In this document: positions 2,425 through 28,327 of the stretch, piece after piece
How the letters are laid out: each line of letters starts with the position of its first letter
Numbering within the stretch: the first letter of the stretch is position 1
DNA from: a bacterium
GTDB lineage: Bacteria > Margulisbacteria > Marinamargulisbacteria > UBA817 > JAQBTH01
Assembly: GCA_027623425.1 (NCBI GenBank)
Contig: JAQBTH010000002.1
Location: 1 to 56,771 of the forward strand
DNA length: 56,771 nucleotides
Direction: 5' to 3'
Position numbers and translations under genes: made by a program
The notes under the pieces: generated by a model
What the model saw: the letters and a program-made list of their open reading frames with translations, nothing else
Databases searched by the model: none
What the model was told of the DNA's origin: nothing

Positions 2425-3033
2425 TTATGCCGTTCCATTTGGGCTTTCACCAGGGCCTTGTCCTTCTGGGATATTGAAACGCACGTGTCGATCATCGGCT
2501 CTTCTTAATTCAGGTTGTAATGGTCGCCTAGCAGGCGGGTGGCCAGGCGGTAATTTTGTTGGGGTTGCTTCTGCGTGGGGCGGAGTTTCTGGTGCTGAAG
2601 CTCCTTTTTCTGCAGCAATTTGTCTTGCCAATTTAGCTAATTCTCTTGCCGCATTTGGCGTTAAGGCAACGGTGCCTCCTAGGTCGGCGCCTCTTAAATC
2701 ATCAAGGCTTCCTGCGACTGATCTTACATATACCGTTTGGCCAGAGGTGGTGGTAAACTCTGCTTTTCTAGGTGTTCTTGGAGAGGAGGCAGGAGACACA
2801 CCAGGAGATACAAGCGTTGTGGCGTTAAAGTCTACTGCGCCATCTATGCCGGCGTTTTTGTGCGTGGCGACTTGTTCGGCGCGGTAGTGGCCTTGTTGTG
2901 CCGGGCGACTACCTGAGTGTGTGTGGGCGAGAGACGTCTGATGATGTTGGCTGGGTGGTTCAAGGTGGCGACCTGAAGAGGCCTGTGGCGTGGCGACTGC
3001 AGCTCCTGCGGCTATGTCAGCTAGATTATGCAC
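2425..3033 (-). CDS. Hypothetical low-complexity Pro/Ala/Ser-rich protein (202 aa), GTG start
   Basis: Longest ORF in the region. Contains one ordered-looking island (GQTVYVRSVAGSLDDLRGADLGGTVALTPNAARELAKLARQIAAEKG). No clear SD. The antisense ORF 2474-2887 looks like a shadow. Confidence 0.45.
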   Translation of the reverse strand: MHNLADIAAGAAVATPQASSGRHLEPPSQHHQTSLAHTHSGSRPAQQGHYRAEQVATHKNAGIDGAVDFNATTLVSPGVSPASSPRTPRKAEFTTTSGQTVYVRSVAGSLDDLRGADLGGTVALTPNAARELAKLARQIAAEKGASAPETPPHAEATPTKLPPGHPPARRPLQPELRRADDRHVRFNIPEGQGPGESPNGTA

Positions 3034-3056: not shown

Positions 3057-3072
3057 TGCGGGTGGTGTGCCA
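3057..3072 (-). promoter_or_regulatory. Candidate sigma-54 -24/-12 promoter element
   Basis: Minus strand reads CTGGCACACCACCCGCAAGG. TGGCAC is exact, GG-N10-GC spacing is exact, and the -12 reads CCGCA instead of TTGCA. It lies about 24 nt upstream of the GTG at 3033 and about 340 nt downstream of a sigma-54 activator gene on the same strand. Confidence 0.4.
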
Positions 3073-3152: not shown

Positions 3153-3371
3153 TTACGAATTTGGTCCATAATCTCTACTTATAATTTTATCTAGACCTAA
3201 TAGTAGAAAAAAAGCTTCGCCTTCTGTTTTGCCTTTGAGTGGGCCTTCTTTTACGGGTGTCGTGTCTGAAAAATGACGTGGCAAACCAAGTCTTGGTAGC
3301 GTGCTGTGATGACTTTTGAATTCAGCGAATGTGCGCACTGAACATACTGTTTGTTTTATTGCGTCAGCCAT
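3153..3371 (-). CDS. Small hypothetical protein (72 aa)
   Basis: ORF only; no recognisable motif. It occupies the region where an upstream activator site for the 3057-3072 element would be expected, so it may not be coding. Confidence 0.3.
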   Translation of the reverse strand: MADAIKQTVCSVRTFAEFKSHHSTLPRLGLPRHFSDTTPVKEGPLKGKTEGEAFFLLLGLDKIISRDYGPNS

Positions 3372-3409: not shown

Positions 3410-6241
3410 TTAGAGGGATATTTTAAGGAGTAATGGCGTGTTGTCACGAACGATGGTGGCCGGTATGGTATTACTGCCTTCAAGTTCATCTAAAATGGTG
3501 TCGTAATGGTTTAGGCTGATGATGGCGTTATCGTTTAATTCGGAAATAAAATCACCGGGTTTTAAACCCGCGCGGGCGGCAGGGCTATCTGGCTCTACCG
3601 ATGTTACGAGTACGGCATAATCGGTTTCGTCGGGAATGGTGTTAATGTCGGGTTCAGTAACAATCAGGCCAAGCGCGTCGGTGATTTGGGCATCAATTGG
3701 TAGGGCCATTGTGTCGGGCGAATCCGCCGGGTTTACGCTAATGGAAAGCGTTGTTTTTTGCCCACGTCGCACAGTAAGCTTGGTGGGTTTACCAATAGTG
3801 AGTTCTTCTATGGTTGTGTTGAATTGTGCGGGTGATGTGATTTCAGTGTTTCCAACTGCCAATATGATATCGCCGCGGCGTAATTTTGCCACATCAGCAG
3901 GGCTGTCTTTTAAGACATTGTTGAGCATTACGCCGTGTTGGCGTTTTAATTTGTGTTGGCGTTGCGCTGAAACTGGAACGGGCTTTGCTTGTACGCCTAT
4001 CCACCCACGTTTCACCACACCGTATTTTTCCAATGCACGCGCAACACGTAGGGCCGTATTTGCAGGTATAGCGGTGCTAAAGGGTGTTTTGGTCATATGG
4101 GGTGAACTGGCAATGCTTGTTATTCCGACCAATCGGCCATCCAGGTCTACTAGCGCCCCACCAGAATGACTACTTGGAACCAACGTGTTTGTGGCCAATA
4201 ATCCATGACGTTTTGTTGGGTTTGGTATGGCCGAAATAATTCCTGTTGCGATGGTGATACCGTGGTCTGGAGAGTGGCCAATGCCCATTACCCAGTCGCC
4301 GAGTCGAATTGTTTCGCTTTCTGGGGCAGGGGTAAGAAACGGATGGCTATTACCTACAATCTTTAGTACAGCAAGGTCACTTTGTGGGTCGACACCAATT
4401 CGTTTTGCTGGCACTGTACGGCCATTATATAAAACCACCTCGAGCTGTTCGCGTTCCCAAATATTGTTGTAAGACGTAATGATTGTGCCAGAGCTGGAGA
4501 TTATAACGCCTGATCCAAGGTGCTTGCTGGCTTCGAGCGGTTGGGCCGTGGCGGGAAGCTCGCCGAAATGTGGGTCTTTTGCTTTGGCTCCCGGAATTGC
4601 ACCAACGGTTTGTATGCCGACGATGGCCCGATTTGTGCTTCGATACACGTATCGAAATACCACTGAATAACCATTTAATTCCGCAAATTCTTTTGGGTAT
4701 CGGTGTTTTGTTTCTGCAACGCCCTTGGTGCTTGTTCCTATAATCAGAGCGGCGGTTAATGCCACTGTTATGATGGATTTAATGCTGATGCCATATTTTT
4801 CTGCTTTGGTATAAAACGTGGTGCGGGAAATGCCCAATGCTTCGGCGGCTTTTCTGATGTTTCCAGCGGTTACTTTTAAGGCGTGTCGCATTGCGGATTC
4901 TTCCACTTCTTCTAGGCTTGGAATATGATTGGATTGAGGTGTAATAGTGTCTTTTTGTTGGGTGGGCTCTGCAAGTAGTGGGGCGGCGTTTTGGCCAGGT
5001 AGGTAGGCTAAAAGAGTGGCGGTGATGGTTTTTCCACCCGCAATAATGGTCATGCGTTGCATGAGGTTTTCCAATTCTCGAATGTTGCCTTCCCAAGGTT
5101 GTTTTAGCAAGAAAACTTCTGCGTCTTGGGATAAATTGGCAGTGGGATGATTAAATTCTTTCGCGTACTTTTCAAGAAAAAACTGAGCCAATGGCACAAT
5201 ATCTTCGCTGCGTTCTCTTAATGGTGGAATGCTGATGGGGAACACATTTAAACGGTAATATAAGTCCAATCGAAACTGCTTGGCCTCAACAGCTTGTTTT
5301 AGATTTCGGTTTGTTGCCGCAATAATGCGCACATCAACTGGAATGCGTTTTCGCCCACCCACGCGTTCTATTTCTCGGTTTTGCAGTACGCGAAGTAATT
5401 TAACTTGTAAGTCTAGCGATAGCTCGCCAATTTCGTCTAAAAATAAAGTGCCGCCTTCGGCCTGTTCGAATTTTCCTGGTCGGGTTTCTGTTGCGCCCGT
5501 AAATGCGCCTTTTTCATGGCCGAATAATTCGGATTCGATTAATTCTTTAGGGATGGCTCCGCAGTTTAATGTAATAAATGGCTTTGGTTTACGGGTTGAA
5601 TTGTTGTGAATTAGATTTGCCAATACGTCTTTTCCTGTGCCACTTTCACCTTCTAATAGGATGGTGATGTCGTTGTCTAGAACGATTTGTATGGCTTTAA
5701 ATACAGGCACCATTGCCCGGCTATTCCCAATAAAATGGTTTCGTTCAATGTGTTGGGGTAGAGATGGCGTTTTTGATTTTTCAGGCATAATAGCCGCCTG
5801 CTCGTCGGAATAGAGTTCATAGGTTAATATGCCCAAAAAATCTAATAAATTACTTAGTTTACCCACGTCTTCATTTAACTCAAATTCATCGGATTTATAT
5901 TGGTTTTGTAGCGCTTTTACAATAGTGGATTTGAATGAAAAAATAAGTAGTGCGGTGTCTTTAGCCGATAAGCCATGTTGGCGGTGGTGTTTTCGTATTT
6001 CTTGCCACAGTGTGATGACTGGTTTTAGCGCTTGAGCATTTAAATTGGGTAAATTGGTGTTTTCAAATGTGGCTGACAATTTATCTAAAAAGAGTTGGGA
6101 ATGACTTGAAAATTCGCCGTCTGTGGTGAATAGAGCATCTTTGTAACGGGGGTTTTCTTCAACTTCTTTTAGCCATGCATCGGAAATTTCGGCATGGTGT
6201 TGGGTGAGAAAGCTATTTGCTTGAAGATTTTGATGTCCCAT
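3410..6241 (-). CDS. Fusion protein: N-terminal helical sensor-like domain, sigma-54 enhancer-binding AAA+ core, Fis-type HTH, one TM helix, HtrA/DegS-like trypsin-fold domain (His replaced by Asn), two PDZ domains
   Basis: One uninterrupted 943-codon ORF. Motifs: GESGTGKD (Walker A, aa 198-205), GAFTGA (aa 245-250), TLFLDEIGE (Walker B), AAEALGISRTTFYTKAEKYGI (HTH), IITVALTAALIIG (aa ~490-502). Then GSGVIISSSGTIITSYNNIW / DLAVLKI / SHSGGALVD (HtrA core) and two PDZ-like segments (RGDIILAVGN..., LKPGDFISELN...). Confidence 0.85.
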   Translation of the reverse strand: MGHQNLQANSFLTQHHAEISDAWLKEVEENPRYKDALFTTDGEFSSHSQLFLDKLSATFENTNLPNLNAQALKPVITLWQEIRKHHRQHGLSAKDTALLIFSFKSTIVKALQNQYKSDEFELNEDVGKLSNLLDFLGILTYELYSDEQAAIMPEKSKTPSLPQHIERNHFIGNSRAMVPVFKAIQIVLDNDITILLEGESGTGKDVLANLIHNNSTRKPKPFITLNCGAIPKELIESELFGHEKGAFTGATETRPGKFEQAEGGTLFLDEIGELSLDLQVKLLRVLQNREIERVGGRKRIPVDVRIIAATNRNLKQAVEAKQFRLDLYYRLNVFPISIPPLRERSEDIVPLAQFFLEKYAKEFNHPTANLSQDAEVFLLKQPWEGNIRELENLMQRMTIIAGGKTITATLLAYLPGQNAAPLLAEPTQQKDTITPQSNHIPSLEEVEESAMRHALKVTAGNIRKAAEALGISRTTFYTKAEKYGISIKSIITVALTAALIIGTSTKGVAETKHRYPKEFAELNGYSVVFRYVYRSTNRAIVGIQTVGAIPGAKAKDPHFGELPATAQPLEASKHLGSGVIISSSGTIITSYNNIWEREQLEVVLYNGRTVPAKRIGVDPQSDLAVLKIVGNSHPFLTPAPESETIRLGDWVMGIGHSPDHGITIATGIISAIPNPTKRHGLLATNTLVPSSHSGGALVDLDGRLVGITSIASSPHMTKTPFSTAIPANTALRVARALEKYGVVKRGWIGVQAKPVPVSAQRQHKLKRQHGVMLNNVLKDSPADVAKLRRGDIILAVGNTEITSPAQFNTTIEELTIGKPTKLTVRRGQKTTLSISVNPADSPDTMALPIDAQITDALGLIVTEPDINTIPDETDYAVLVTSVEPDSPAARAGLKPGDFISELNDNAIISLNHYDTILDELEGSNTIPATIVRDNTPLLLKISL

Positions 6242-6386
6242 ATGTTCAATTTTTTAACGCTTTTTTGGTGTTTTGGCAAGTGTGTTTGTCTTTTTGTCCT
6301 TGTTTTTTTATTCGTGAAAAATTTGAGATTTTGTTTAAATTCTGCTAATGTTTTAATACATTAATTTCTAAAAAGGATGATATAGT

Positions 6387-13558: not shown

Positions 13559-14683
13559 TTATTCGGGGTCTAAGTCCATATCAATTTCAGAGCCTGGGCG
13601 GTTGTCCATATTCATTTCGTCATCGTCGGAATTAAAACGACTCTTTTTTGATGTTTTTGGTGGTGTTTGGCTTTTGGGTTTGGCCTTATCGTCGGTTTTT
13701 ATGTCTTGCTCAGATTTATTTTCCTCGGTACTAACTTCAACTGGGGATTCCGGTAACTTGTAGCTGGTGATTGCGGCAACTAATTCTTTTTTGGCCTTTT
13801 CATTCATCCACGTCCACTTTGCTTTTCTTACCATTTCTTCTGCTTCTGTTTTGTCAGTGTTATGGATGGTATCAACGATTTTAAGTAGCGTGGTTTCAAG
13901 CGTATTTTTAAACTCAAATTGAGGTGTTTTTAGTCTGAAATTGCTTACCGTATTAGGCGCTTGTTTGTAGGTAATGTTGTCGTAAAATTCTGGTGTGAAT
14001 AGATGTTTTAATGTTTTAACAGGAATACGATCTTTTAACGCGTATTCGATGCGAGTTAAGTCTGTTAAGACGAGTGTGGCCATGAAATTATCGTATGGGG
14101 TGATGGTTTCGAGGGAAATTAGGGTGTTGCCAGATACCTCTGTTTCATCGAGATAGACCAGTTGAAACTTGTCTTTATCCGTAAAGAACTGCACGAGATA
14201 CCCTGTTTTTTCGTGTTTTAGTTTAGATGCGCGGCCAGACCAAATCCACGCATTTCCTGAGGGGTCTTTTGCACGGTTTTCACGTAACGATAATAAGGAT
14301 TCTTTGAGGTTTGATGCGGTGATGGTGACGCTGTTTTTGTTAGAGGCGATGGATTTAAATGTAATATTTTCTGAGGGGTCTTTTTCTTCCTCAATATCCC
14401 CTTGGCCCCAACTCATAATTTCAGGGGCTTCACCATCTAATATGCCAGATACAGCGAAGTACATGGTGGTGTCTAAAATGGAAAACGACGGAAGCGTGGT
14501 GTTTGATGTTGAGGCTATATTTTTACTGCTTACCACGTTTACGACGGCTGTTACGGTAAAATCTTTGCGTTCTTTCGTGTCATTGGGGGCTACTTCTTGG
14601 GTTACTTTTCCACACGATATTACGACCGCGAGTAACGCGCAACAAAGCCCCACCCCTAAGGCATTTGATTTTAGAGAGTTCAT
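13559..14683 (-). CDS. Hypothetical lipoprotein (374 aa) with Lys/Asp-rich C-terminal tail
   Basis: Lipobox-like signal MNSLKSNALGVGLCCALLAVVISC-G. No recognised domain. Co-oriented and tightly spaced with ORF 14692-15753 and tgt. Confidence 0.7.
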   Translation of the reverse strand: MNSLKSNALGVGLCCALLAVVISCGKVTQEVAPNDTKERKDFTVTAVVNVVSSKNIASTSNTTLPSFSILDTTMYFAVSGILDGEAPEIMSWGQGDIEEEKDPSENITFKSIASNKNSVTITASNLKESLLSLRENRAKDPSGNAWIWSGRASKLKHEKTGYLVQFFTDKDKFQLVYLDETEVSGNTLISLETITPYDNFMATLVLTDLTRIEYALKDRIPVKTLKHLFTPEFYDNITYKQAPNTVSNFRLKTPQFEFKNTLETTLLKIVDTIHNTDKTEAEEMVRKAKWTWMNEKAKKELVAAITSYKLPESPVEVSTEENKSEQDIKTDDKAKPKSQTPPKTSKKSRFNSDDDEMNMDNRPGSEIDMDLDPE

Positions 14684-14691
14684 ACGCCGAA

Positions 14692-15753
14692 TTATACCAC
14701 AGAGCCGAATTCACTTGGTGGTGTTGGATTTACTTTATCTACAGCACCACTTTGTTCGGGAGCTTGACCATTATGTTGAGGCATAATGCTGGCTGCACCG
14801 CTATTGGCCGCTGAACCAACGCGACTTTGTAAATCGACATCGCCCTCAATTTTATTTTCAGTGGAGGGCTTAACTAAATTATTGAGTAGGTCTTGTAGTT
14901 GTTTTTCAGCGTCATGTTGCATGCTTCTTGCATTATCAATAGTGGTTTCTTGAATGCCTCCCACTTTACCTACAGAGTCTTTTGAGAGTGTGGATGAAAC
15001 TTGGCCATTATCGAAGGAGACTCCGGATATGCCACCTAGATTTCCTAGGCGTTCCAGTTGAAAGTTAAGCGCATCATCATTTGTTTTATGAGCGGAGTCA
15101 CCTGAATTACCCGTCATATCCGCATCGGTAGATTCAATGCCCATAACGCGATTCATGCTGCGTTGTAATAGTGCTTGAACCGCGTCTTCTGCAATTTCGC
15201 GGCGCATTGCTTTGTATGTTTCGCCTGCTTTTCGCATAAATTCATTATCCATAAGGCCGCCTTTTGCGACGTCAAATAATTCATTAATTTGGTCTGGATG
15301 CACTTCTTCAAACGGATTTTGCATATTGGGTTGTTGAATGCCCTTTGCGCCCGATACACCACTAACGGTATTTTCTGTTATCGCGCCTGACCCACTTATT
15401 GCCTCGCCTGGTTTGATGGCGCCACCCATTGAACCGGCACTGCCACCAAAACCTGCTTTTGCAGGGTCTTTTAACAAATGTTCAAGTAAGCCAGTTTCCT
15501 TAAGGAATTTTAGTTTTTTCTGGATTTTTTTGATTTCATTTTTTAATTCTGGATCCTGAATCATGTCTCCAGCTTTGCCTAGTAACTTACCTAGCGTATC
15601 AATTTCGTGGGGCTGTATGCCATCGCCAATCATGTTTTGAATGCGCGCTAAAAGTGACATTAAAACATCTAATTCGCCTTTGGGCATGCCGCCTTGTTTG
15701 CCTGCGGTGGCAATTTGGCTGGTCAACGTCATTATTAAGCTTTCTAAACGCAT
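14692..15753 (-). CDS. Hypothetical Gly/Ser/Asn-rich helical protein (353 aa)
   Basis: Start set at ATG 15753 because it is preceded by AGGAG with 7-nt spacing; the tracked upstream ATG at 15783 has no SD. No TM or signal peptide and no recognised domain. Confidence 0.7.
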   Translation of the reverse strand: MRLESLIMTLTSQIATAGKQGGMPKGELDVLMSLLARIQNMIGDGIQPHEIDTLGKLLGKAGDMIQDPELKNEIKKIQKKLKFLKETGLLEHLLKDPAKAGFGGSAGSMGGAIKPGEAISGSGAITENTVSGVSGAKGIQQPNMQNPFEEVHPDQINELFDVAKGGLMDNEFMRKAGETYKAMRREIAEDAVQALLQRSMNRVMGIESTDADMTGNSGDSAHKTNDDALNFQLERLGNLGGISGVSFDNGQVSSTLSKDSVGKVGGIQETTIDNARSMQHDAEKQLQDLLNNLVKPSTENKIEGDVDLQSRVGSAANSGAASIMPQHNGQAPEQSGAVDKVNPTPPSEFGSVV

Positions 15754-15785
15754 GATAATTCTCCTAAATGCAGATTCTATCATTA

Positions 15786-15813
15786 TTATCGGTAAAAAGA
15801 GTTATTAACTTGC
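15786..15813 (-). promoter_or_regulatory. Sigma-28 (FliA/SigD-type) promoter candidate for operon 15753-12471
   Basis: Minus strand: GCAAGTTA - 12 nt - ACCGATAA (consensus TAAAGTTT-N11-GCCGATAA). The -10 octamer and spacer length are identical to the element at 23961-23988. The SD and ATG follow within about 30 nt. Confidence 0.55.
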
Positions 15814-15875
15814 ATAGCGCAATAAGTGAATTAACTTGCTTGTTTTTCCTGCCGTGCGCTATATTGTTGAGTCTT

Positions 15876-16436
15876 ATGGGAAAAGCAGTTTTTTTAGATA
15901 GAGATGGAACCATCATTCAGGATCGGCATTATTTGCGAGACGTAAATGAGGTTGCTTTTGAAGACCGTGTTGTTCCGGCGTTGCACATGCTGGTTGCTGC
16001 GGGGTTTAAGCTTATCATTGTGACGAATCAGTCGGGTATTGGGCGGGGCATTATTTCCGTGTCTGAATATGAAGCAGTTGAAGCGCATTTAACGCAACGT
16101 TTGTTGGCAAATGAAGTGCCGTTGGCGGCGACGTATTATTGCCCGAATCACCCTAAAGAAGGTCAGGGCGAATATAAGCAGGAATGTGGATTTCGAAAGC
16201 CAAAACCAGGTATGATTTTTAAAGGTTTGGAACAGTTTCAGTTGGACCCAGCTCAATGTTATATGGTGGGAGATAAATTAATAGATATTGCTGCAGGTCA
16301 GGGTGCGAAATTGAAAAAGAATATTCTGGTGCGTACTGGGTACGGCGCCGAACAATCGAAGAAAAACAGCGAGATTGTGCCCGATGCAATTGCGGAGGAC
16401 TTGTATGATGCTGTGGTTAATCATATTCTAGATTAA
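15876..16436 (+). CDS. gmhB: D-glycero-D-manno-heptose 1,7-bisphosphate phosphatase (HAD family)
   Basis: AVFLDRDGTI (HAD motif I), VTNQSGIGRG, CPNHP...C.FRKPKPGM, VGDKLIDI. Start placed at ATG 15876. Confidence 0.85.
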   Translation: MGKAVFLDRDGTIIQDRHYLRDVNEVAFEDRVVPALHMLVAAGFKLIIVTNQSGIGRGIISVSEYEAVEAHLTQRLLANEVPLAATYYCPNHPKEGQGEYKQECGFRKPKPGMIFKGLEQFQLDPAQCYMVGDKLIDIAAGQGAKLKKNILVRTGYGAEQSKKNSEIVPDAIAEDLYDAVVNHILD

Positions 16437-16438
16437 TC

Positions 16439-17587
16439 ATGCAGATACTATTTGTTAGTAATGGGGCGGGTGAAGATGGAATCGCTGCAAATGTGGCTGA
16501 GTCGCTGCGTGAGTTGGTACCTGGTGTAAGTTGTTTAGGGTTTCCTCTTTTGGGTTCTGGTAAGGCCTATCGCAATCGGGGTATTGATGTGGTTAATGTG
16601 GCTGAAATGCCACCCAGTGGTGGTTTTATGCGTTCGCTTGTTAGTGTGGCTAAGGATTTAGCTGGAGGCGTGATTCGCCAGCACTATCAAAATCGCATCA
16701 AATTGCGGGAACGCCATGCTCACACCCATGCCATCGTGGCGGTTGGTGATGTGTACTGCTTGGGTATTGCGGCCAAGGGCTTTAATGGCCCAATTGTGTT
16801 TATGCCAACCGCGAAAAGTGATCGGTTTATGCCTCACACAGGTTTAGAAGTAGGGATTATGAAGCGCATTGCCAATGTTGTTGTTCCCCGTGATGAAGAC
16901 ACGGCTGCGGGGCTGCGTGCCCAAGGTGTGGATGCCATCTATTGTGGAAACCCGATGATGGATAAGTTGATGGTTGGGCATTCGTTGACAGGTGTGTTGG
17001 ATGGTAATGATAAGGATGTCGTGGCATTGATACCAGGTAGCCGAAGTGAGGCGATTTTGAATTTGGCGCGTCAATTGGATGTGGTTGTGGCGCTTTGCTC
17101 ACAAGGCTTTCAGGCTAATTTTGTAGTTGCCAAAGCACCGACGTTGAGTGTGTCGGCAATTAAAGAGGGATTGGAATCAACGGCCTGGCACGTGGCTCAA
17201 GATGGTGGACGTGTTAGTTTGGTGCACAGTAAAACTGCTGTTAAAGTGTTGATGTCTGAGGCGTTTGTAGACGTGATAAATGCTGCGCGTTGGTGCATTG
17301 GTATGGCGGGTACGGCGAACGAACAGGCGGCTCATTATGGGCGGTTTGTGTATACGTTTGTGGGTACTGGGCCGCAATCGACTGAGAAGCGGTTGCGTGA
17401 ACAGGAACAGTTGATGGGGCGGGAACGGATTTGCTTTTTGGATGCTCGGGGATCGGCGGAGCTGGCGGCGCGATTGCTTGCCGATTACAAGCAGCGGGGG
17501 ATGGGTGAGCTAAGCCCTATTGGTTATGAAACAGACGCATCAACTGCGGTGGCCCAGCTTATTGCGCAGCGCGCTGACCTCTTGTAG
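16439..17587 (+). CDS. Lipid-A-disaccharide-synthase-related (LpxB-like) glycosyltransferase-fold protein
   Basis: N-terminus ILFVSNGAGEDGIAANVAESL resembles the LpxB/GT19 N-terminus, and the size is about 380 aa. Family-level call only. Confidence 0.5.
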   Translation: MQILFVSNGAGEDGIAANVAESLRELVPGVSCLGFPLLGSGKAYRNRGIDVVNVAEMPPSGGFMRSLVSVAKDLAGGVIRQHYQNRIKLRERHAHTHAIVAVGDVYCLGIAAKGFNGPIVFMPTAKSDRFMPHTGLEVGIMKRIANVVVPRDEDTAAGLRAQGVDAIYCGNPMMDKLMVGHSLTGVLDGNDKDVVALIPGSRSEAILNLARQLDVVVALCSQGFQANFVVAKAPTLSVSAIKEGLESTAWHVAQDGGRVSLVHSKTAVKVLMSEAFVDVINAARWCIGMAGTANEQAAHYGRFVYTFVGTGPQSTEKRLREQEQLMGRERICFLDARGSAELAARLLADYKQRGMGELSPIGYETDASTAVAQLIAQRADLL

Positions 17588-21814: not shown

Positions 21815-22987
21815 ATGGCCAGCGTTGCATTGCGTTTAGTTCGGAGTGGTACACGGCGGGTAGTTCCTGCTGTTGCGGGCTCAATCCAAAGAAGTTTTTC
21901 TTCTTCAATCAACGCGGGGACTCAGGTGCTATCCACACGGCCTCAGGTTGTAGTGGGTTTAGGTGAATTGGGGGGTCTTTTTGCCCGTGAGGCTAGTGCA
22001 ACAATGGTGGGGGCCCTCAAAAGAGAATCCACTCCTAATGGCGTAACTGTAACACGTTTTAATTATGATGCGACGGCGCCAGATCATGCTGAACAATTAC
22101 TTGAAACCGTGTTTACTCGCCATCCTGATGGTGCCGATATCATATATGCCATTGGTGCGTGCTCTGGTGATGCAGAGGGAAACCCGGATCTTGCGCATCA
22201 AGTGAACGTATTAGCCCCGCTTCAGCTTATGGCTGCTACGGCAGGAACTGGTGTGCGGACGGTGTTTTTTTCATCTATGGCGGCTCGAGAGGGTTTGGGT
22301 GCAATTGTTGGTAACGAACCCGCAAATGCTGTTCGTTTGTACGGTAGCCAAAAAGCAGAGCTTGAATCGGGTGTTCGGTTTCAGCATCGCAAAGGAAATC
22401 GTAATGTTACTGCACTTGGGGTGCCTGGAATGTTGCCCGATGTGACCCTATTTGAAGGTGACGTGCCTAAAATAGGTGGCGGTGGTTCTACGGATCCCAT
22501 GCCATTATATATTCAAGCTGCAATGTTGAATTTATTTGCCCATTCGAACGGTCAGCCAATACCTGTTCCGACGTTGGTTTTACCGCTTTTATCTGATTCA
22601 GAAACCGCTTTTACTACCCATAGAGCGTTTCGCGTGGGTATGCAGTGCCTACTTAGTAAAAGTGGGCCGTTTGAAACCCCTGTTGTGGGTGTGCCTGGGG
22701 CTGCCATAAGTTTGGAAATGGCGCAATTTGTATTGCAATCATCTGGTGTTCGAGGGGGCGTGCTACCAGTGGTTATTGGCCGTCCAGATATTCGAAATGA
22801 TTTTGTTGCGTTATGGCCAACCTCTCAGTCTGGGGATTCTGTTGGTAAAGCATGTTTTGGTAGTAATTCAGTTTTTGATTCGATTTTAAGTTGTGCGAAG
22901 GGGTTTTTCAGGGTACCGTATGCGGCTAATTTAGCTGCATTTAATGCGACCCTGGCCCGCATTTGGCCAGAGGGAGTTCCCAAATAA
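21815..22987 (+). CDS. Extended short-chain dehydrogenase/epimerase-fold protein, L-threonine 3-dehydrogenase-like, with 43-aa basic N-terminal extension
   Basis: Strong SD (AGAGGAG). VVVGLGELGG (GxGxxG), YGSQK (YxxxK), GGGGSTDPMPLYIQAA and a WP...D...K tail, colinear with motifs I recall from animal/bacterial TDH (GLGQLG, YGxSK, GGGTTDYAVQIF). Confidence 0.55.
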   Translation: MASVALRLVRSGTRRVVPAVAGSIQRSFSSSINAGTQVLSTRPQVVVGLGELGGLFAREASATMVGALKRESTPNGVTVTRFNYDATAPDHAEQLLETVFTRHPDGADIIYAIGACSGDAEGNPDLAHQVNVLAPLQLMAATAGTGVRTVFFSSMAAREGLGAIVGNEPANAVRLYGSQKAELESGVRFQHRKGNRNVTALGVPGMLPDVTLFEGDVPKIGGGGSTDPMPLYIQAAMLNLFAHSNGQPIPVPTLVLPLLSDSETAFTTHRAFRVGMQCLLSKSGPFETPVVGVPGAAISLEMAQFVLQSSGVRGGVLPVVIGRPDIRNDFVALWPTSQSGDSVGKACFGSNSVFDSILSCAKGFFRVPYAANLAAFNATLARIWPEGVPK

Positions 22988-23027
22988 GTGGGTGTTTGTT
23001 TTTGTGCCTGCGCGTTATACTGGTGCC

Positions 23028-23807
23028 ATGAATAAACGACACCTTATATCACTGTTTGTTTTGGCGATGGCTCTTTTTGGTTCAACATCACTTGTTTTTG
23101 CATCAGAGTCATCTACTCACCCCGATGGTTTGTTTTTTACCGGGGCAATTGGTGGTGCGTTTAATGCGCCCACTAATGTGCAGTTTCGCCAAAAAGGTGA
23201 AGATGATGTAAGCGTATTTGCCAATTATTCTAATAAATCATTTGAAGATTATCCTTATTGGACCATGCGGTTTGAAAATTGGAATGCGAATAACGCGTTA
23301 GAATTTGAATTAATTCATCATAAAATTTATTTAGAAAATACCCCCGATGAAGTGGCTTATTTTAATGTGAGTGATGGGTATAATATGTTTATGCTAAACC
23401 GCGCTAGGCGAATTGGGCCGCGTATTTGGCGTGTGGGTGGCGGTGTTGTGATTGGGCATGCCGAAAGCAAGGTGCGTGGCCAAAAATTAGATTCCAGTGA
23501 GGGGCTTGGGGATGCGGGATTTTTTGTGGGTGGGCCTGCGGTTCAAGCCGGTGTTGAGTGGCGCCGTTTTACTACAGAAACGTTGTTTTTTAGTTTGGAA
23601 CAAAAATTAACGGCCGCTTATACCGAGTTTCCCATAAACGATGGTGTTGTAAGCGGGTTTAATTTTGCGTGGCATATTAATCTTAGGTGGGGCTCTAAAA
23701 AACCTGGCACTGGCGCGTCTTTGAAAGATCATGTGGTATTTTGGTCGCCGTTGGCAATGCCGTTTACCTTAGATGCGGTTTTTCCTAGGTATATTGATAA
23801 ACAGTAA
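23028..23807 (+). CDS. Putative outer-membrane beta-barrel protein (259 aa)
   Basis: Signal peptide MNKRHLISLFVLAMALFGSTSLVFA-S. Alternating aromatic/hydrophobic strands (FNFAWHINLRWG, TLFFSLEQKLTAAY). Start placed at ATG 23028. Confidence 0.6.
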   Translation: MNKRHLISLFVLAMALFGSTSLVFASESSTHPDGLFFTGAIGGAFNAPTNVQFRQKGEDDVSVFANYSNKSFEDYPYWTMRFENWNANNALEFELIHHKIYLENTPDEVAYFNVSDGYNMFMLNRARRIGPRIWRVGGGVVIGHAESKVRGQKLDSSEGLGDAGFFVGGPAVQAGVEWRRFTTETLFFSLEQKLTAAYTEFPINDGVVSGFNFAWHINLRWGSKKPGTGASLKDHVVFWSPLAMPFTLDAVFPRYIDKQ

Positions 23808-23846
23808 CTAAAATGTGTCATATGTCACGCTAGGGTGTGACCTTGG

Positions 23847-23872
23847 GATTCCCATCGAGTTGGGAATGACGC
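23847..23872 (+). repeat. Hairpin repeat copy (GGGAATGACGG family)
   Basis: GATTCCCAtcgagtTGGGAATGACGC, 40 nt after the stop of ORF 23028-23807. Confidence 0.75.
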
Positions 23873-23960
23873 CTGTGAAATGACTGTTGCGACGTGTGGT
23901 TTGAAACCGACTCATGATGCGTATGCACTTTTCTAGCGCAAGGAGTGAGTGTGGATGTAA

Positions 23961-23988
23961 TAAAGTTTTGCGTGCGGGCTACCGATAA
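23961..23988 (+). promoter_or_regulatory. Sigma-28 (FliA/SigD-type) promoter candidate for the 24058-28327 cassette
   Basis: TAAAGTTT (exact -35 consensus) - 12 nt - ACCGATAA (7/8 of GCCGATAA), about 70 nt upstream of the ATG at 24058, which has a GGAGG SD. Confidence 0.65.
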
Positions 23989-24057
23989 TGCCAACAGAAT
24001 GACTTGGGAACAAAACCGAGTCGGGAACTGTTTAACAGTTTATTGGAGGTATTTATT

Positions 24058-25803
24058 ATGGCAGATGTAGGTGGTGCCGTAGGTGGTGCAAAAAATTTCC
24101 GTTCAGTTAAGGGCGATGTGTCAGATTCGAATAGGCAAAATACTAACTTAGCGCGTTCAGCGTGTCTTGCTGCTTTATTAGTTAAAGGTGGTAAAACGAC
24201 AGCGATGGGTGCCGCTGATAGGGTAAAAGTGGCTACTATGTTGTCTGGTTTTTCTCATCAAAAAGAACTCGTAAAAAGTGAGTATGCTCAGCTTACAAGA
24301 GATGTTAAAGCATCAATTAAAGGCGAATCTGATGTCAGTCCAAATGTAGAACGATTTCAATCCCAATTGAGTTTAGCAGTAAAGGCAATGGGTAAGGCTG
24401 TGAGTAAAATGCAGACTACTGAAGCTGTTAAGGATACAACTTATAATAAATTATTAGGGGCACAATTTGCGCGATTGGATGCCATTCAGGGATTGTTAGA
24501 GGCCAAACAGGATGTTGGAATAGCACATATTCAATTTGTGCATGACTTGGCACACAGCTCACCATCGCCTAGTGTTACTAAAGAATTAATTCAGTATGCT
24601 AACTTACTATTTCAAGAGATTGGAACAACGGCACTTAGTAAAGATTTAGGATTAAACCCAGAAGGCATTCAAGATGCTATTTCTGAGAATAGGTTTCCTA
24701 AGATTCAAGTGAATAGAGATGTACTTGATATAGTTCCATACTCGTATGAGGTATTTAAACCTACGGTCAACGCTCTTAAAGGTGGGCCACAATTAGTTGG
24801 AAAAGTAAGTTTGGAAATGTTTACTGAAATTGCATCAGCGAATTTTAACGTTAACCTTGAACAGGTAGGTGCTTTGAAGGATATGATTACTTTTGTTTCC
24901 GATTCTATCTTATTTTTGGATCAGGCATCGCAACTTGAAATGGGTGATTCAGATGCTAGAGAGATTGAAGAACTTCGAGGATTGTTTGTGGGTCAAATTT
25001 CATTTTTATCCGAAATTATTGTGAAAGTGGCAGATCACCTTATCGCATTTCATGATTCAGTTGCTGCGAATGACATGTTGCAAGTAGCGGATTTAATAGA
25101 AGTTGTTTTAGGTTGTATGACGCGTTCAGGTGACCCATCGCAGGATGCAAACTTGAAGACTCTTTATCATAGCTATGATGCGATTGCTACGCACTTTTAT
25201 CGGACTGAAGTGGGAATGGCTCAGCTGGCGTCATTTCAGCAACCGTTAGATGTGTTTACTGCTACTGCACGTGCGCAAGTTAGTTTGGTTTTGGAGGGAG
25301 AGTATGTATTTGAGTTGCATAACCCTATGGCTGTTATACGAGAAAATGCACCCGGAGCAGCAGTAAAGACTGATTCTGAGGTGGTTCCAAATAGGACGAT
25401 GCGCTCGGAATTACAGGAGGCTAAGAGGGGGCTTCAAAATGTTAGTCTAAGCTTGGTGCCTCTTTCTATGTTTGTTGATTTAAAAAATGCTGCACATGCT
25501 ATTTTGGGCGATTGTAGTACTCATGTGGATCGCAAAGGAGCTGTGGCTGATGGGGGTAGCCATCTCTCTGAGGATGTTCAATTTACTTCTGAGATGCAAC
25601 CACAATTGGATCGTTTTAAAGCTGATTTAAAACTTATGAGTCAACGCTATCCTGCACAATATGAGGTTTTGTGTAAATTATCTGATGTTTGTCGTGATGT
25701 AGGCGCCGTTTCGGCCCCACTACCCTTTAAAGGAGGGGTGTCGCAAAGCGCAACGTTGAATATGAGGGGTATCGCATCAACCTCACTGGGGGAACTGCGG
25801 TAA
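24058..25803 (+). CDS. Hypothetical large helical protein, paralogue A (581 aa)
   Basis: GGAGG SD 8 nt upstream. Gly-rich N-terminus MADVGGAVGGAK. Colinear shared motifs with ORF 26342-28327 (MAD..GG, ERFQ, Y.TEVG). Confidence 0.8.
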   Translation: MADVGGAVGGAKNFRSVKGDVSDSNRQNTNLARSACLAALLVKGGKTTAMGAADRVKVATMLSGFSHQKELVKSEYAQLTRDVKASIKGESDVSPNVERFQSQLSLAVKAMGKAVSKMQTTEAVKDTTYNKLLGAQFARLDAIQGLLEAKQDVGIAHIQFVHDLAHSSPSPSVTKELIQYANLLFQEIGTTALSKDLGLNPEGIQDAISENRFPKIQVNRDVLDIVPYSYEVFKPTVNALKGGPQLVGKVSLEMFTEIASANFNVNLEQVGALKDMITFVSDSILFLDQASQLEMGDSDAREIEELRGLFVGQISFLSEIIVKVADHLIAFHDSVAANDMLQVADLIEVVLGCMTRSGDPSQDANLKTLYHSYDAIATHFYRTEVGMAQLASFQQPLDVFTATARAQVSLVLEGEYVFELHNPMAVIRENAPGAAVKTDSEVVPNRTMRSELQEAKRGLQNVSLSLVPLSMFVDLKNAAHAILGDCSTHVDRKGAVADGGSHLSEDVQFTSEMQPQLDRFKADLKLMSQRYPAQYEVLCKLSDVCRDVGAVSAPLPFKGGVSQSATLNMRGIASTSLGELR

Positions 25804-25973
25804 TGCCAAGAATGGTTCAAGGGAAGAGAAAAGATCACCCTCTCGTTGAGCTACGAGCGGCCGATAAAACTCCGTTACCTGGGAACAAAACTCCTGGCAG
25901 TATTGTTGTGGGTGATATGGCTAATATAGTACTGGCAATGGCTGTTCATGGTTATCCGAAAGCTGCAGTCTAA
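25803..25973 (+). CDS. Small ORF (56 aa), start overlaps the upstream stop (TAATG)
   Basis: Not in the ORF track because it is under 60 aa. Translation: MPRMVQGKRKDHPLVELRAADKTPLPGNKTPGSIVVGDMANIVLAMAVHGYPKAAV. Fills an otherwise non-coding 170-nt gap. Confidence 0.4.
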   Translation: MPRMVQGKRKDHPLVELRAADKTPLPGNKTPGSIVVGDMANIVLAMAVHGYPKAAV

Positions 25974-25996
25974 ATCAAATGGAAAGGATTAACAAT

Positions 25997-26329
25997 ATGA
26001 CGATTAAAGAACAGTTTCAGCAGGTAGTGAGTGCGCCCGATTCATCGGTGTTAATTACGAATCATCGGGATACCAATCGCCGTGATTATCGGCATTATTA
26101 TTTACGGGTTACCATGGATGGCATGCAGCTTAAGGAAGAATCAATGACCTTGCGCCGCGATTATACCTATTCGTTTACTGATGATTCCCTTGAAATGGAT
26201 GGTATTAAAAAAGGGCAAGATTTTGTAGATGAGTTTTATGACAAGCTAGCCAAGATTGCCAAAGATGTGGAAGCAAACCAAGCGTTTGTTTTTGAACATA
26301 AACCAGAGCAATCTGAGACAGATAAATAG
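25997..26329 (+). CDS. Small acidic hypothetical protein (110 aa)
   Basis: Start chosen at ATG 25997 (GGAAAGGA about 8 nt upstream) rather than 25979. D/E-rich C-terminal half. Confidence 0.65.
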   Translation: MTIKEQFQQVVSAPDSSVLITNHRDTNRRDYRHYYLRVTMDGMQLKEESMTLRRDYTYSFTDDSLEMDGIKKGQDFVDEFYDKLAKIAKDVEANQAFVFEHKPEQSETDK

Positions 26330-26341
26330 GAGGAAATTAAA

Positions 26342-28327
26342 ATGGCAGATGCATTAGGTGGGCTACAAGGACAAGGTGTTATTGCAGGAATGCGTCAAAA
26401 GGCTGTTGATTCTCGGGATGCGGCATTGCAGGCCTTAGAAAATCGATTTGCAACTGAAGACTTGCGTGGAGCGGAGCAAATGAAGGGGTTTTCCGCAAGC
26501 GCTGTTGCTGTGTTCTTAACGGGAATGGGTGGTGGTGATAAGGGCGCCTTTAACTCGGCAATGTTGAATTATTCTCAGGCTGGTGGAAAAGGGCCAATGT
26601 ATGAGGTTAAATCTAGAATGGGGCAAAAATCAGCGGTTAAAACTGACGCGTTTACAACGCCATTGGAGAGATTTCAAAAAGCGGTTGGCGATGTGCTTTC
26701 CAATATCGAAAAATTGAGAGGAAAACCGGTAGATGTTAAAGGACACGCTCGTTTAAAAGCGGATGTTATTGCTTTGGCGGACTTGCTAAGTGATGCGTTT
26801 TCTAAAGGTATTTCTTTGCGATCGGAATCGCTGGACAATTGTATGGCGGTTTTTGATTCTGTATTAACGGGTGGAGACATGCCATTGGGGCAGTTGAAAG
26901 ATGATCTGGGTGATTTTGTTCAAAACTCCCAAGATATGGTTGTTCTTCATCAGTGCGGGCTTGTTCCGTTTTTGGATAAAACAGAGTTAACGGCTGGAGA
27001 ATTTAAACCGTTAATTAGGTTATTGACTCAGCATACTGAACGTTTGGCTCATTTAGGGAATGCTTCTGTTTTGGATGGTTTAAAAGAGGCGGTTAGTAAC
27101 GTTTTTATGGAAAAAATTATGCCTTTATTAACAACTCTGGATTATCTTACTCCAGGTTCTGAGTCTAATGGCATATTAATGGCATTTTGTCAGGGTAATG
27201 GTGACTTTTTGGGGGTGGATACCGCTACAAAACTGGGGTTTCTGGATTTGGTAGTTGAAAATGCGTGTTGTTCGCCTATCGCCGATGATTTAGTTGTTGC
27301 ACGGAATTTACTTTTCGAGGTTGTGCAACATGCGTCAGTTGGCGACATGCGTTCAGGTGAGCCTCCTTTAGGGCAGCAGTTTAAAGACATGATGGATGCT
27401 CTTGGTGATGCGTGGTATGGCACCGAGGTAGGAACGATGGCTGTTAACGCGTTGTTTGAAGGGATGGATGGCAAGCTGGGAGTAGAGAGCGGCCAAATTA
27501 CGGGTTTAACGAAGTTGGTAGGATCAGCGCAAAAACGTGCAGATGAGGCAAAGGGAGGGTCTGTTACAGATGATTTACACCCTGAACAATATTTGCGTTT
27601 ATCAAAAACTGAGGGCGCCTACTCAGCTAGGGGTAAAGGGGTTGCGGAAGCGACCCGAGACCGCTTTCGTGAGTCCTTTCCGTTTCCTATTGTGCCGTAC
27701 CGAGCAGTTGCGCTACTTGCAGATATCGCAAAAGGCGGATTAATGGTGTCAGAAAACAGTGGTGGAGTGTCGGTTCAGACGGATCGTTTTGATCGATTAC
27801 CTAAAGAAGGGCGGTTGACGTATCTTCCTGACCAAGAAGTGCCGAGCTTCACATTTAAAGGTGAGCCCGTTAAACGAGATGTTGTATGTGTTGATGGAAA
27901 AGAAGGGGCGCCCGCTTTGAGTGAAAATGCATATGATTTAATGGAAACTAAATTACCAGGTGCGTTTAAGAATGAGGCGAGATTAGAGGCTTTTAAACGG
28001 GTTTCAGCAGCGTTTGGTGATATTGCAAGAGCGGGTTCAGCAGTGCCTAGAAAAGTAGTTTCCACAAATCATTTCTACACGATGCCGGCCATGCAAGGGG
28101 TGTTGCGAACGCTATTGCTTTCCGTAGGCGAAAGTTTAGCTGCTCCCGGGTATGAACCTGGTACAGACCGATTAACATTTGCAGATAAGTGTGCAGGATT
28201 AGATATTGATGCATCTAGTGATCCAATGGCCGTGATAACGTATTCTAGAAGTCCTGTAAGTCGTGTTGATATGTTATCTATGTATCAACTGATGGCATGG
28301 GCACCAAGTTCAGAGACTATGGCCTAG
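26342..28327 (+). CDS. Hypothetical large helical protein, paralogue B (661 aa)
   Basis: AGGAGG SD. N-terminus MADALGGLQGQG. Shares ERFQ and AWYGTEVG motifs in the same order as paralogue A. Confidence 0.8.
   Translation: MADALGGLQGQGVIAGMRQKAVDSRDAALQALENRFATEDLRGAEQMKGFSASAVAVFLTGMGGGDKGAFNSAMLNYSQAGGKGPMYEVKSRMGQKSAVKTDAFTTPLERFQKAVGDVLSNIEKLRGKPVDVKGHARLKADVIALADLLSDAFSKGISLRSESLDNCMAVFDSVLTGGDMPLGQLKDDLGDFVQNSQDMVVLHQCGLVPFLDKTELTAGEFKPLIRLLTQHTERLAHLGNASVLDGLKEAVSNVFMEKIMPLLTTLDYLTPGSESNGILMAFCQGNGDFLGVDTATKLGFLDLVVENACCSPIADDLVVARNLLFEVVQHASVGDMRSGEPPLGQQFKDMMDALGDAWYGTEVGTMAVNALFEGMDGKLGVESGQITGLTKLVGSAQKRADEAKGGSVTDDLHPEQYLRLSKTEGAYSARGKGVAEATRDRFRESFPFPIVPYRAVALLADIAKGGLMVSENSGGVSVQTDRFDRLPKEGRLTYLPDQEVPSFTFKGEPVKRDVVCVDGKEGAPALSENAYDLMETKLPGAFKNEARLEAFKRVSAAFGDIARAGSAVPRKVVSTNHFYTMPAMQGVLRTLLLSVGESLAAPGYEPGTDRLTFADKCAGLDIDASSDPMAVITYSRSPVSRVDMLSMYQLMAWAPSSETMA

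Follow-up and report, generated by a model that had tools for sequence, protein, structure and literature searches.

An open reading frame (ORF) on the minus strand of a contig from an uncultivated marine member of the Marinamargulisbacteria (Margulisbacteria) joins, within a single polypeptide, a sigma-54-dependent bacterial enhancer-binding protein (bEBP), a hydrophobic helix and an HtrA-like module with two PDZ domains. It lies in a stretch of 56,771 nucleotides (contig JAQBTH010000002.1 of assembly GCA_027623425.1, positions 1 to 56,771), which was analysed at its full length and is referred to below as the window. Comparison with related sequences indicates that the ORF arose by a real in-frame fusion of two genes and has been kept by selection, and that its HtrA half is probably no longer a working protease.

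Conservation of the fused reading frame

The fused protein has an orthologue, P0002 (959 amino acids, 75% identity over the full length), encoded by the same uninterrupted ORF on contigs of the sequencing runs SRR29340314 and SRR29340315. The window and the orthologous contig have a gene order in common, consisting of MreB, a 197-aa gene, MetRS, a divergent 399-aa gene, the fusion gene, a disordered protein of ~200 aa and a convergent clpB. When the window ORF was compared with that of P0002 by the Nei–Gojobori method, the proportion of synonymous differences (pS) was 0.70–0.79 and hence saturated, while the proportion of nonsynonymous differences (pN) was 0.09 in the RsbRD_N and AAA+ domains, 0.06 in the helix-turn-helix (HTH), 0.14 in the protease fold and 0.21–0.22 in the PDZ domains. 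Because pS is saturated while pN stays low, the fused frame appears to have outlived a long divergence with each domain constrained, and these values show, at the level of the sequence, purifying selection on both halves and on every domain.

An orthologue with a stop and restart between the HTH and the hydrophobic segment, which a preliminary description of this DNA had named as the observation that would speak against a fusion, was not seen, and P0002 keeps the ORF open. That an error (in sequencing or assembly, or a frameshift) made one ORF of two ordinary adjacent genes, a view for which we found no supporting point, is extremely improbable, given that the fused frame is present in three independent assemblies (the window, SRR29340314 and SRR29340315) at 25% amino-acid divergence, with an alignment that is gap-free at the junction.

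Domain layout of the fused protein

The ORF runs from an ATG at 6241 to a stop codon at 3410–3412, and its 943 codons without an internal stop confirm the count given in the preliminary description; the features discussed below are located in Table 1. All sequence hallmarks of a bEBP are present in the N-terminal half, namely a Sigma54_activat AAA+ domain, Walker A and B motifs, the GAFTGA loop and a Fis-type HTH, and among the NCBIfam models this half scores best against NifA, NorR and NtrC, with NifA at the top. Pfam and the motif coordinates thus uphold the earlier assignment of an AAA+ core with GAFTGA plus a Fis-type HTH. The AAA+ core is not a naked one: an N-terminal RsbRD_N-type domain, of regulatory type and not mentioned in the same description, was found at residues 11–112, and it is also present in stand-alone relatives, e.g. 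P0241. The HTH is internal in the fused protein, unlike its usual C-terminal position in bEBPs.

Structure prediction with AlphaFold2 was run on residues 441–943, using 122 aligned sequences; this range was chosen because, in alignments of the full chain, MAFFT placed HtrA sequences, whole or in their N-terminal parts, onto the bEBP half. The resulting model (mean predicted local distance difference test, pLDDT, 85.8) shows three HTH helices, a helix at 487–503, disorder at 504–515, a further helix at 517–539, the protease barrel and two PDZ domains.

Origin from two overlapping genes

Among the stand-alone relatives of the activator half, P0241 at locus L040 and P0008 at locus L041 are 51–54% identical to it over residues 5–487, the value depending on the tool. 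At both loci the bEBP stop codon overlaps the next gene, by the four nucleotides of an ATGA in L040 and by 8 nt in L041, and the overlapping gene codes for an HtrA-like protein with a classical N-terminal signal peptide of canonical n-h-c layout (MNKKINLFNSVVLILLIAGSPLLA in L040, MIRNLIFLFVFLALVSGPAEG in L041). The C-terminal half of the window protein aligns end to end with the HtrA-like protein of L041 (residues 2–458 versus 2–450, 30% identity), an alignment that places IKSIITVALTAALIIG on IRNLIFLFVFLALVSG and Ser486 on the start Met, and the hydrophobic helix matches the signal peptide of the stand-alone HtrA-like protein P0395 residue for residue. Since the helix aligns on the signal peptide and Ser486 on the start methionine, the segment described earlier as a 'membrane anchor' is the former signal peptide of the partner. 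These alignments show a junction that runs exactly from the bEBP C-terminus to the former Met-Ile-Lys and on into the h-region, and by this comparison the fusion took out one stop and one start codon within a gene overlap.

We searched for further fusions of this kind in several ways. An exhaustive HMMER search of 1.84 billion 50%-identity cluster representatives yielded no other bEBP–HtrA fusion, and its sole full-length match was the query's own cluster. The next-best matches (P0241, P0242, P0008, P0246, P0252 and others) were stand-alone bEBPs of 480–520 aa with the same N-terminal domain, whose alignments end at query residue 486–487, and the matches in multiple stretches that were scanned all proved to be tandem AAA+ proteins (19/19). 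A word-indexed search with the full protein found P0002 only, and one with the HtrA half found ordinary HtrAs only (380–540 aa, ≤38% identity). A scan of GTDB genomes for fusions gave a single distant ordinary HtrA, and a scan of metagenomes, run on generic HTH patterns, gave ordinary bEBPs. Two apparent HtrA-fusion matches, L004 and L007, were discarded as chance pattern matches adjoining ordinary, catalytically intact HtrAs. A 2008 survey of serine-protease architectures likewise lists no combination of Sigma54_activat with trypsin (PMC2605481), and the literature searched contains no account of a bEBP–HtrA fusion, nor of sigma-54 in Margulisbacteria. The architecture therefore appears, from the databases and literature searched, to be unique to one lineage of an uncultivated phylum, in agreement with the earlier remark that it is not a described family.

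The same searches turned up other composite activators. P0005 (770 aa) is a second neighbour fusion in this bEBP family, in which a Hydrolase_6 (HAD-like) domain is joined to the bEBP N-terminus; the corresponding gene stands unfused directly upstream of the bEBP in L042 (7075–7902) and L044 (5356–6198). Chains with two or three Sigma54_activat AAA+ domains in tandem, some of them with FHA domains, occur in many metagenomic proteins (P0243, P0244, P0247–P0251, P0253, P0256, P0258, P0261, P0262, P0264, P0266, P0268, P0269, P0273, P0276 and P0277), and both real activators and gene-calling or assembly fusions are conceivable among them.

On the taxonomic side, the GyrA encoded in the window shares 75% identity with its counterpart in a Candidatus Marinamargulisbacteria single-cell genome, and its other named matches were Margulisbacteria. 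The L042 contig, from a marine metagenome (S15 protein MAH80384.1), carries the NCBI label 'Rickettsiales bacterium'. Its bEBP is among the closest stand-alone relatives of the window activator (52% identity), and because of this closeness and the grouping of the window with Margulisbacteria by GyrA, the label may be a misclassification.

Degeneration of the HtrA catalytic triad

Similarity of the C-terminal half to HtrA proteins was recovered by independent methods. Pfam Trypsin_2 matched residues 576–707 (E 1.1e−21) and the Pfam PDZ matches covered residues 762–830 and 879–925, while the NCBIfam model degP_htrA_DO aligned over residues 567–937 with 238.7 bits, under its cutoff of 416.2. Sequence matches in the PDB were to DegP and DegQ (E 3.6e−41), and a Foldseek comparison of the AlphaFold2 model with the PDB placed DegQ, DegP, DegS, AlgW and MucD at the top, the best being DegQ (E 5e−34). 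In PDZ1, the carboxylate-binding loop RGWIGV is retained (residues 745–750, nt 3992–4009), starting one residue before the PDZ1 part as delimited in Table 1.

The catalytic triad did not share in this conservation. In the alignment, the triad positions read Asn/Asp/Ser in the window protein and Ser/Asp/Ser in P0002, against His/Asp/Ser in 33 of 33 ordinary HtrAs. The unfused partners of related bEBPs are broken too, with Asn at the His position in L040 and Ala at the Ser position in L041. The window HtrA half is thus, by prediction, a pseudoprotease without its catalytic His, and because the lesions in fused and unfused members are independent, they point to a non-proteolytic role for the whole bEBP-linked HtrA group. 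The protein should best be termed HtrA-like rather than a protease, because the fold is present but the triad is not intact.

The HtrA-type trypsin fold and two PDZ domains of the preliminary description accordingly stand, on Pfam and Foldseek evidence, but a working protease does not, given Asn592. Its further idea of a DegS-like protease module was not borne out in either the window protein or P0002, nor in the unfused relatives. A self-contained proteolytic relay is unlikely on these sequences, because the catalytic His has been lost and the triads of the unfused relatives are broken.

Promoter, palindrome and candidate regulon

The imperfect palindrome that abuts the start codon of the fusion gene belongs to a family motif, TGTTnA-N5-TGAACA, found directly 5′ of the bEBP start codon, at a distance of a few nt at most, in five independent loci, which besides the window are L001/L002, L040, L041 and L042/L043. 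The motif also occurs just upstream of the clpB −24 box in L041 and L044. Its coordinates are 9982–9998 in L001, 2248–2264 in L040, 4493–4509 and 9479–9495 in L041, 7982–7998 in L042 and 9448–9464 in L044. NifA recognises an upstream activating sequence (UAS) of the form TGT-N10-ACA. The palindrome is probably the operator or UAS of the bEBP family, and a family binding site in this position implies that the bEBP gene is autoregulated; we infer that the fusion gene is controlled in this way. One more match, at L001 16146–16162, lies inside the clpB coding sequence and was taken as chance.

A sigma-70-like promoter precedes the fusion gene (Table 1). Its putative −10 box ends 10 nt before the fusion-gene ATG, with no Shine-Dalgarno sequence, and the mRNA may be leaderless or nearly so. 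A sigma-54 promoter was looked for upstream of the fusion gene and none was found, the conserved signals there being the sigma-70-like hexamers and the palindrome. The preliminary description had pointed to a sigma-54-like element at 3057–3072. We rejected it: two positions of its −12 box are mismatched, the orthologous intergenic region does not contain it, and elements of its stringency are no scarcer in the window than chance predicts (50 matches against 35 expected).

Genes adjoining related bEBPs include clpB (in L044, and convergently oriented in the window, L001 and L041), lptE-secG-groES-groEL (L047) and htrA-like genes (L040, L041); unrelated bEBP neighbours were also seen, such as SIR2, a histidine kinase and genes of unknown function. 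The −24/−12-type pattern TGGCAY-N5-YTGYA occurs six times among the 47 loci fetched. Four of the six matches are immediately upstream of clpB (L001, L002, L041, L044), and the other two (L009, L030) stand beside unrelated bEBP genes. Elements of the form TGGCAC-N5-yTGTA were located at L001 16426–16441(−), L002 12040–12055(−), L041 9456–9471(−), L044 9472–9487(+) and L030 8338–8353(+), and their −12 box is unusual in reading yTGTA in place of TTGCA. Upstream of groES in L047, TGGCAC is present and the −12 box is poor. As the 5′ end of the window's own clpB falls outside the window, the clpB promoter evidence comes from orthologous and related contigs. Taken together, these motifs and neighbours suggest a sigma-54-type proteostasis or chaperone regulon in Margulisbacteria with a lineage-specific −12 'TGTA' variant.

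Several neighbouring features were recorded alongside. The gene downstream of the fusion encodes a Pro/Ala/Thr-rich protein of ~200 aa that evolves fast, is probably disordered and has no Pfam match (window 2425–3033(−), L001 12956–13609); it occupies the same position in the orthologous contig. A further ORF of 72 codons, which has a Shine-Dalgarno-like AAGGA (window 3153–3371(−)), is absent from L001. Synteny on the upstream side of L040 was considered and dropped, the gene there not being homologous to the window's upstream gene.

Topology and mechanism

Tentatively, we favour a mechanism in which the fused protein is anchored in the membrane with its N-terminus inside and its C-terminus outside (N-in/C-out), and an extracytoplasmic, non-proteolytic sensor module is coupled to AAA+ assembly; we infer its anchor, sensing, coupling and targets. 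The relic signal peptide would serve as the single anchor and hold the activator at the inner membrane face, and the HtrA-PDZ module outside would bind unfolded proteins or peptides in the manner of DegS and DegP. Ligand binding would change the oligomeric state of the module, and this change, relayed via the helix, would govern assembly of the AAA+ ring, which in turn would activate −24/−12 promoters of proteostasis genes, e.g. the neighbouring clpB. Via the palindrome at the start codon, the fused protein would also regulate the sigma-70-type promoter of its own gene. More speculative, though still a possibility to be taken seriously, is a single-chain trans-envelope device, in which a periplasmic, catalytically dead HtrA/PDZ part would sense unfolded envelope proteins and control the cytoplasmic AAA+ part either directly through one transmembrane (TM) helix or through export-coupled cleavage, in which signal peptidase and then an intramembrane protease would set the activator free.

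The anchor is supported first by the span itself, which the preliminary description placed at nt 4733–4777 (residues 489–503). No other segment is as hydrophobic in either orthologue, the 19-residue Kyte–Doolittle mean being 1.92 in the window protein and 1.56 in P0002 (classical TM threshold 1.6), and the span comprises 13 strongly hydrophobic residues within a run that is still uncharged over 17 residues in the former and 23 in the latter. Between the two proteins the helix is only 22% identical and has diverged at the neutral rate (pN 0.58 versus pS 0.57), with zero charged residues gained in either lineage; since it has remained free of charge despite this drift, some hydrophobic function has presumably been retained. 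The HtrA family is almost always extracytoplasmic, and an N-in/C-out topology of the fused protein is possible.

A number of observations weigh against membrane anchoring, and several of them are at the same time what speaks for an alternative that we consider rather unlikely, in which the entire chain is cytoplasmic. The helix would then be peripheral or buried in an oligomer interface, and the HtrA/PDZ part would act as a cis regulatory or oligomerisation domain gating the AAA+ ring. Such a module would sense misfolded proteins or exposed C-termini, like PspA on PspF or NifL on NifA, but in cis, and the unfused partner would be anchored N-out/C-in, facing the cytoplasm. The span is TM-like only marginally: on the Wimley–White octanol scale the fused spans score −3.5 (window) and −6.2 (P0002) kcal/mol against −8.5 and −9.1 for the more hydrophobic unfused signal peptides, and the score of the span is no better than that of buried strands of the soluble domains. 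A basic cluster follows the hydrophobic run in all four bEBP-linked HtrA-like proteins, with four Lys plus Arg in 15 residues in the window, P0002 and L041 proteins and seven in that of L040 (net charge +2 to +7), whereas the same 15 residues of ordinary HtrAs (n = 112) have a mean of 1.7, none reaching 5, and a net charge of −0.33 on average and +2 at most. By the positive-inside rule, this basic flank argues against translocation of the C-terminal side.

The DNA-binding domain adds a steric difficulty. In the AlphaFold2 model only four residues (483–486) separate the DNA-recognition helix from the hydrophobic helix, and because the latter starts so soon, simultaneous membrane insertion and DNA binding would be awkward on this model, the DNA then having to run along the membrane surface. 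ClpB and GroESL, whose genes are linked to this bEBP family, are cytoplasmic chaperones; neither rpoN nor a clpB promoter is found within the 56.8-kb window; and the architecture is represented by two sequences only, the window protein and P0002. A cytoplasmic location would also suit a catalytic triad that is already degenerate, and a fusion would be easier to tolerate if the partners already shared one compartment. What stands in its way, besides the extracytoplasmic habit of the HtrA family, is the canonical layout of the unfused partners' signal peptides, as well as the expectation that a functionless hydrophobic stretch of 17–23 residues should have gained charges at this divergence, as neither lineage has done. 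The 'single hydrophobic span' and 'membrane anchor' of the preliminary description are therefore only partly upheld: it is the most hydrophobic segment, but a bona fide TM helix is doubtful for a short, marginal former signal peptide with a basic flank.

Improbable, in our view, is a processed precursor. Here the chain would insert N-in/C-out and signal peptidase I would cut between GVA and E (TIA and A in P0002), releasing a soluble periplasmic pseudo-HtrA; the activator, left tail-anchored, would then be freed by signal-peptide peptidase or a site-2 protease, so that its release would be tied to successful export, a form of regulated intramembrane proteolysis. RseP cleaves remnant signal peptides. 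Both orthologues keep signal-peptide proportions (a Lys n-region, an h-region of 12–13 residues and small residues at −3/−1), the disordered linker after the span would be accessible, and release would remove the clash between HTH and membrane. Against it, the putative mature end carries Lys and Arg at +3/+5, which is unfavourable to cleavage and export, and the marginal hydrophobicity and basic flank trouble a precursor as they do an intact anchor.

We give quite little credence to a tolerated accident, in which an indel in a 4–8-nt overlap joined two co-transcribed genes whose products keep their old roles, perhaps less well. The overlapping start and stop codons of the relatives make such a fusion mutationally easy, another neighbour fusion (Hydrolase_6, P0005) is known in the same bEBP family, and the HtrA fusion is confined to one lineage. 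Yet the fused frame has outlasted saturating synonymous divergence with both halves constrained, and a DNA-binding activator held to a domain destined for export would be expected to be highly deleterious unless accommodated.

Comparison with known systems

The unfused pairs of L040 (P0241) and L041 (P0008) are the closest relatives of the fused protein, sharing its bEBP family and an HtrA-like partner with a degenerate triad and a basic segment, with clpB nearby in L041. They differ in consisting of two polypeptides, the partner having a free, strongly hydrophobic signal peptide, whereas the window sequence has lost both codons, stop and start, and carries its signal peptide in mid-chain.

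Among characterised systems, DegS-RseA-RseP-sigmaE of E. coli and AlgW/MucA of Pseudomonas are alike in that an HtrA fold with PDZ could read unfolded envelope proteins, the output being stress-gene transcription. DegS, however, is proteolytically active, has a single PDZ domain, is anchored at its N-terminus and acts on a separate anti-sigma of an extracytoplasmic function (ECF) factor of the sigma-70 family, whereas the fused protein lacks the His, has two PDZ domains (DegQ/DegP type) and has a covalently attached sigma-54 AAA+ activator as its output. If the span crosses the membrane, the arrangement would resemble that of ToxR, CadC and TcpP, in which a single TM helix connects a DNA-binding part in the cytoplasm to a sensor in the periplasm. 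Those proteins have N-terminal winged-helix domains of the OmpR type, a linker of tens of residues and sigma-70 promoters; the fused protein, in contrast, would be a hexameric AAA+ sigma-54 activator of marginal TM character, and a linker of the ToxR/CadC type between DNA-binding domain and TM helix is missing from it.

PspF-PspA and NifA-NifL provide precedents for an activator co-encoded, often in translational coupling, with a sensing partner that gates its AAA+ domain. The likeness to NifA extends to the family palindrome, whose TGT-N11-ACA form recalls the NifA UAS, and to the top NCBIfam similarity. The partners differ, being the coiled coil of PspA or the PAS/GHKL protein NifL there and a predicted HtrA/PDZ module, fused in cis, here. 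MamO, a magnetosome HtrA-family pseudoprotease with a degenerate triad, has been repurposed non-proteolytically (PMC4794232). It resembles the window protein as a bacterial HtrA/trypsin-fold protein with a degenerate triad, but it binds transition metals for biomineralisation and has no transcription link, so that the relation is one of fold only.

Coordinates and other features of the window

Table 1 Features of the fusion gene and its upstream region in the window.
Feature	Position (nt)	Strand	Residues	Basis or remark
Fused ORF: bEBP, relic signal peptide and HtrA-like module with two PDZ	3410–6241	−	1–943	943 codons plus stop; P0002 75% identical full-length
RsbRD_N-like domain (non-haem globin type)	5906–6211	−	11–112	Pfam PF14361, E 6.5e−10, 40.1 bits (cutoff 24.3)
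Sigma-54 interaction AAA+ domain	5234–5731	−	171–336	Pfam PF00158 Sigma54_activat, E 4.9e−73
Walker A GESGTGKD	5627–5650	−	198–205	Coordinates verified
GAFTGA sigma-54 contact loop	5492–5509	−	245–250	Coordinates verified; identical in P0002
Walker B LFLDEIGE	5423–5446	−	266–273	Coordinates verified
AAA+ lid	5009–5218	−	342–411	Pfam PF25601 AAA_lid_14, E 5.2e−21
Fis-type HTH	4793–4918	−	442–483	Recognition helix 473–482; Pfam PF02954 HTH_8, E 7.6e−11; AlphaFold2 helices
Hydrophobic helix IKSIITVALTAALIIGT	4733–4783	−	487–503	Relic signal peptide or anchor of ancestral htrA-like gene; aligns with P0395 N-terminus; predicted helix
Disordered basic linker STKGVAETKHRYP	4694–4732	−	504–516	A-x-A-like site GVA/E; conserved KHRYPKE motif; pLDDT <50
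HtrA/DegQ-like protease-fold domain	4007–4543	−	567–745	Degenerate triad; Pfam Trypsin_2, NCBIfam, PDB and Foldseek matches
Triad position Asn592 (in place of His)	4466–4468	−	592	
Triad position Asp622	4376–4378	−	622	
Triad position Ser693	4163–4165	−	693	
PDZ1	3707–4006	−	746–845	Pfam PDZ_2 and AlphaFold2
PDZ2	3413–3706	−	846–943	Pfam PDZ_6/PDZ and AlphaFold2
Imperfect palindrome CGTTAA-N5-TGAACA (TGT-N11-ACA type)	6243–6259			Abuts start codon; candidate operator of bEBP family
Sigma-70-like promoter TTGCCA-N17-TAAAAA	6251–6279	−		Conserved with L001; consensus match only, putative function

Elsewhere in the window, runs of large ORFs (363–661 aa) without a Pfam match occur among housekeeping genes at 13559–17587 and 21815–28327, as is typical of a poorly characterised phylum. 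A 948-aa protein encoded at 47896–50742(+) combines an N-terminal RNase_T-type exonuclease with a DinG-like helicase (DEAD plus Helicase_C_2). GC skew on the plus strand is positive throughout positions 1–56771, the cumulative skew rising monotonically, and AT skew is mostly negative; no skew switch of the kind marking a replication origin or terminus was found within these limits.

Implications

Sigma-54 activators are regarded as soluble cytoplasmic hexamers under the control of N-terminal domains or separate partner proteins. A natural, selected fusion constitutes a 'Rosetta-stone' link, which suggests joint action of the sigma-54 activator and the HtrA-like pseudoprotease, also in those relatives in which their genes merely overlap; judging by the linkage to clpB, groESL and htrA-like genes, the role that the pair would share is proteostasis control. 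Should the fused protein prove cytoplasmic, an HtrA/PDZ module would have been taken into that compartment as a regulatory domain, which is rare; if the protein spans the membrane, it would open a new route for envelope information to RNA polymerase. A single-chain trans-envelope device would, if true, be the first membrane-integral sigma-54 activator, wiring the status of envelope and secretion directly to sigma-54 chaperone promoters without a sigma/anti-sigma relay.

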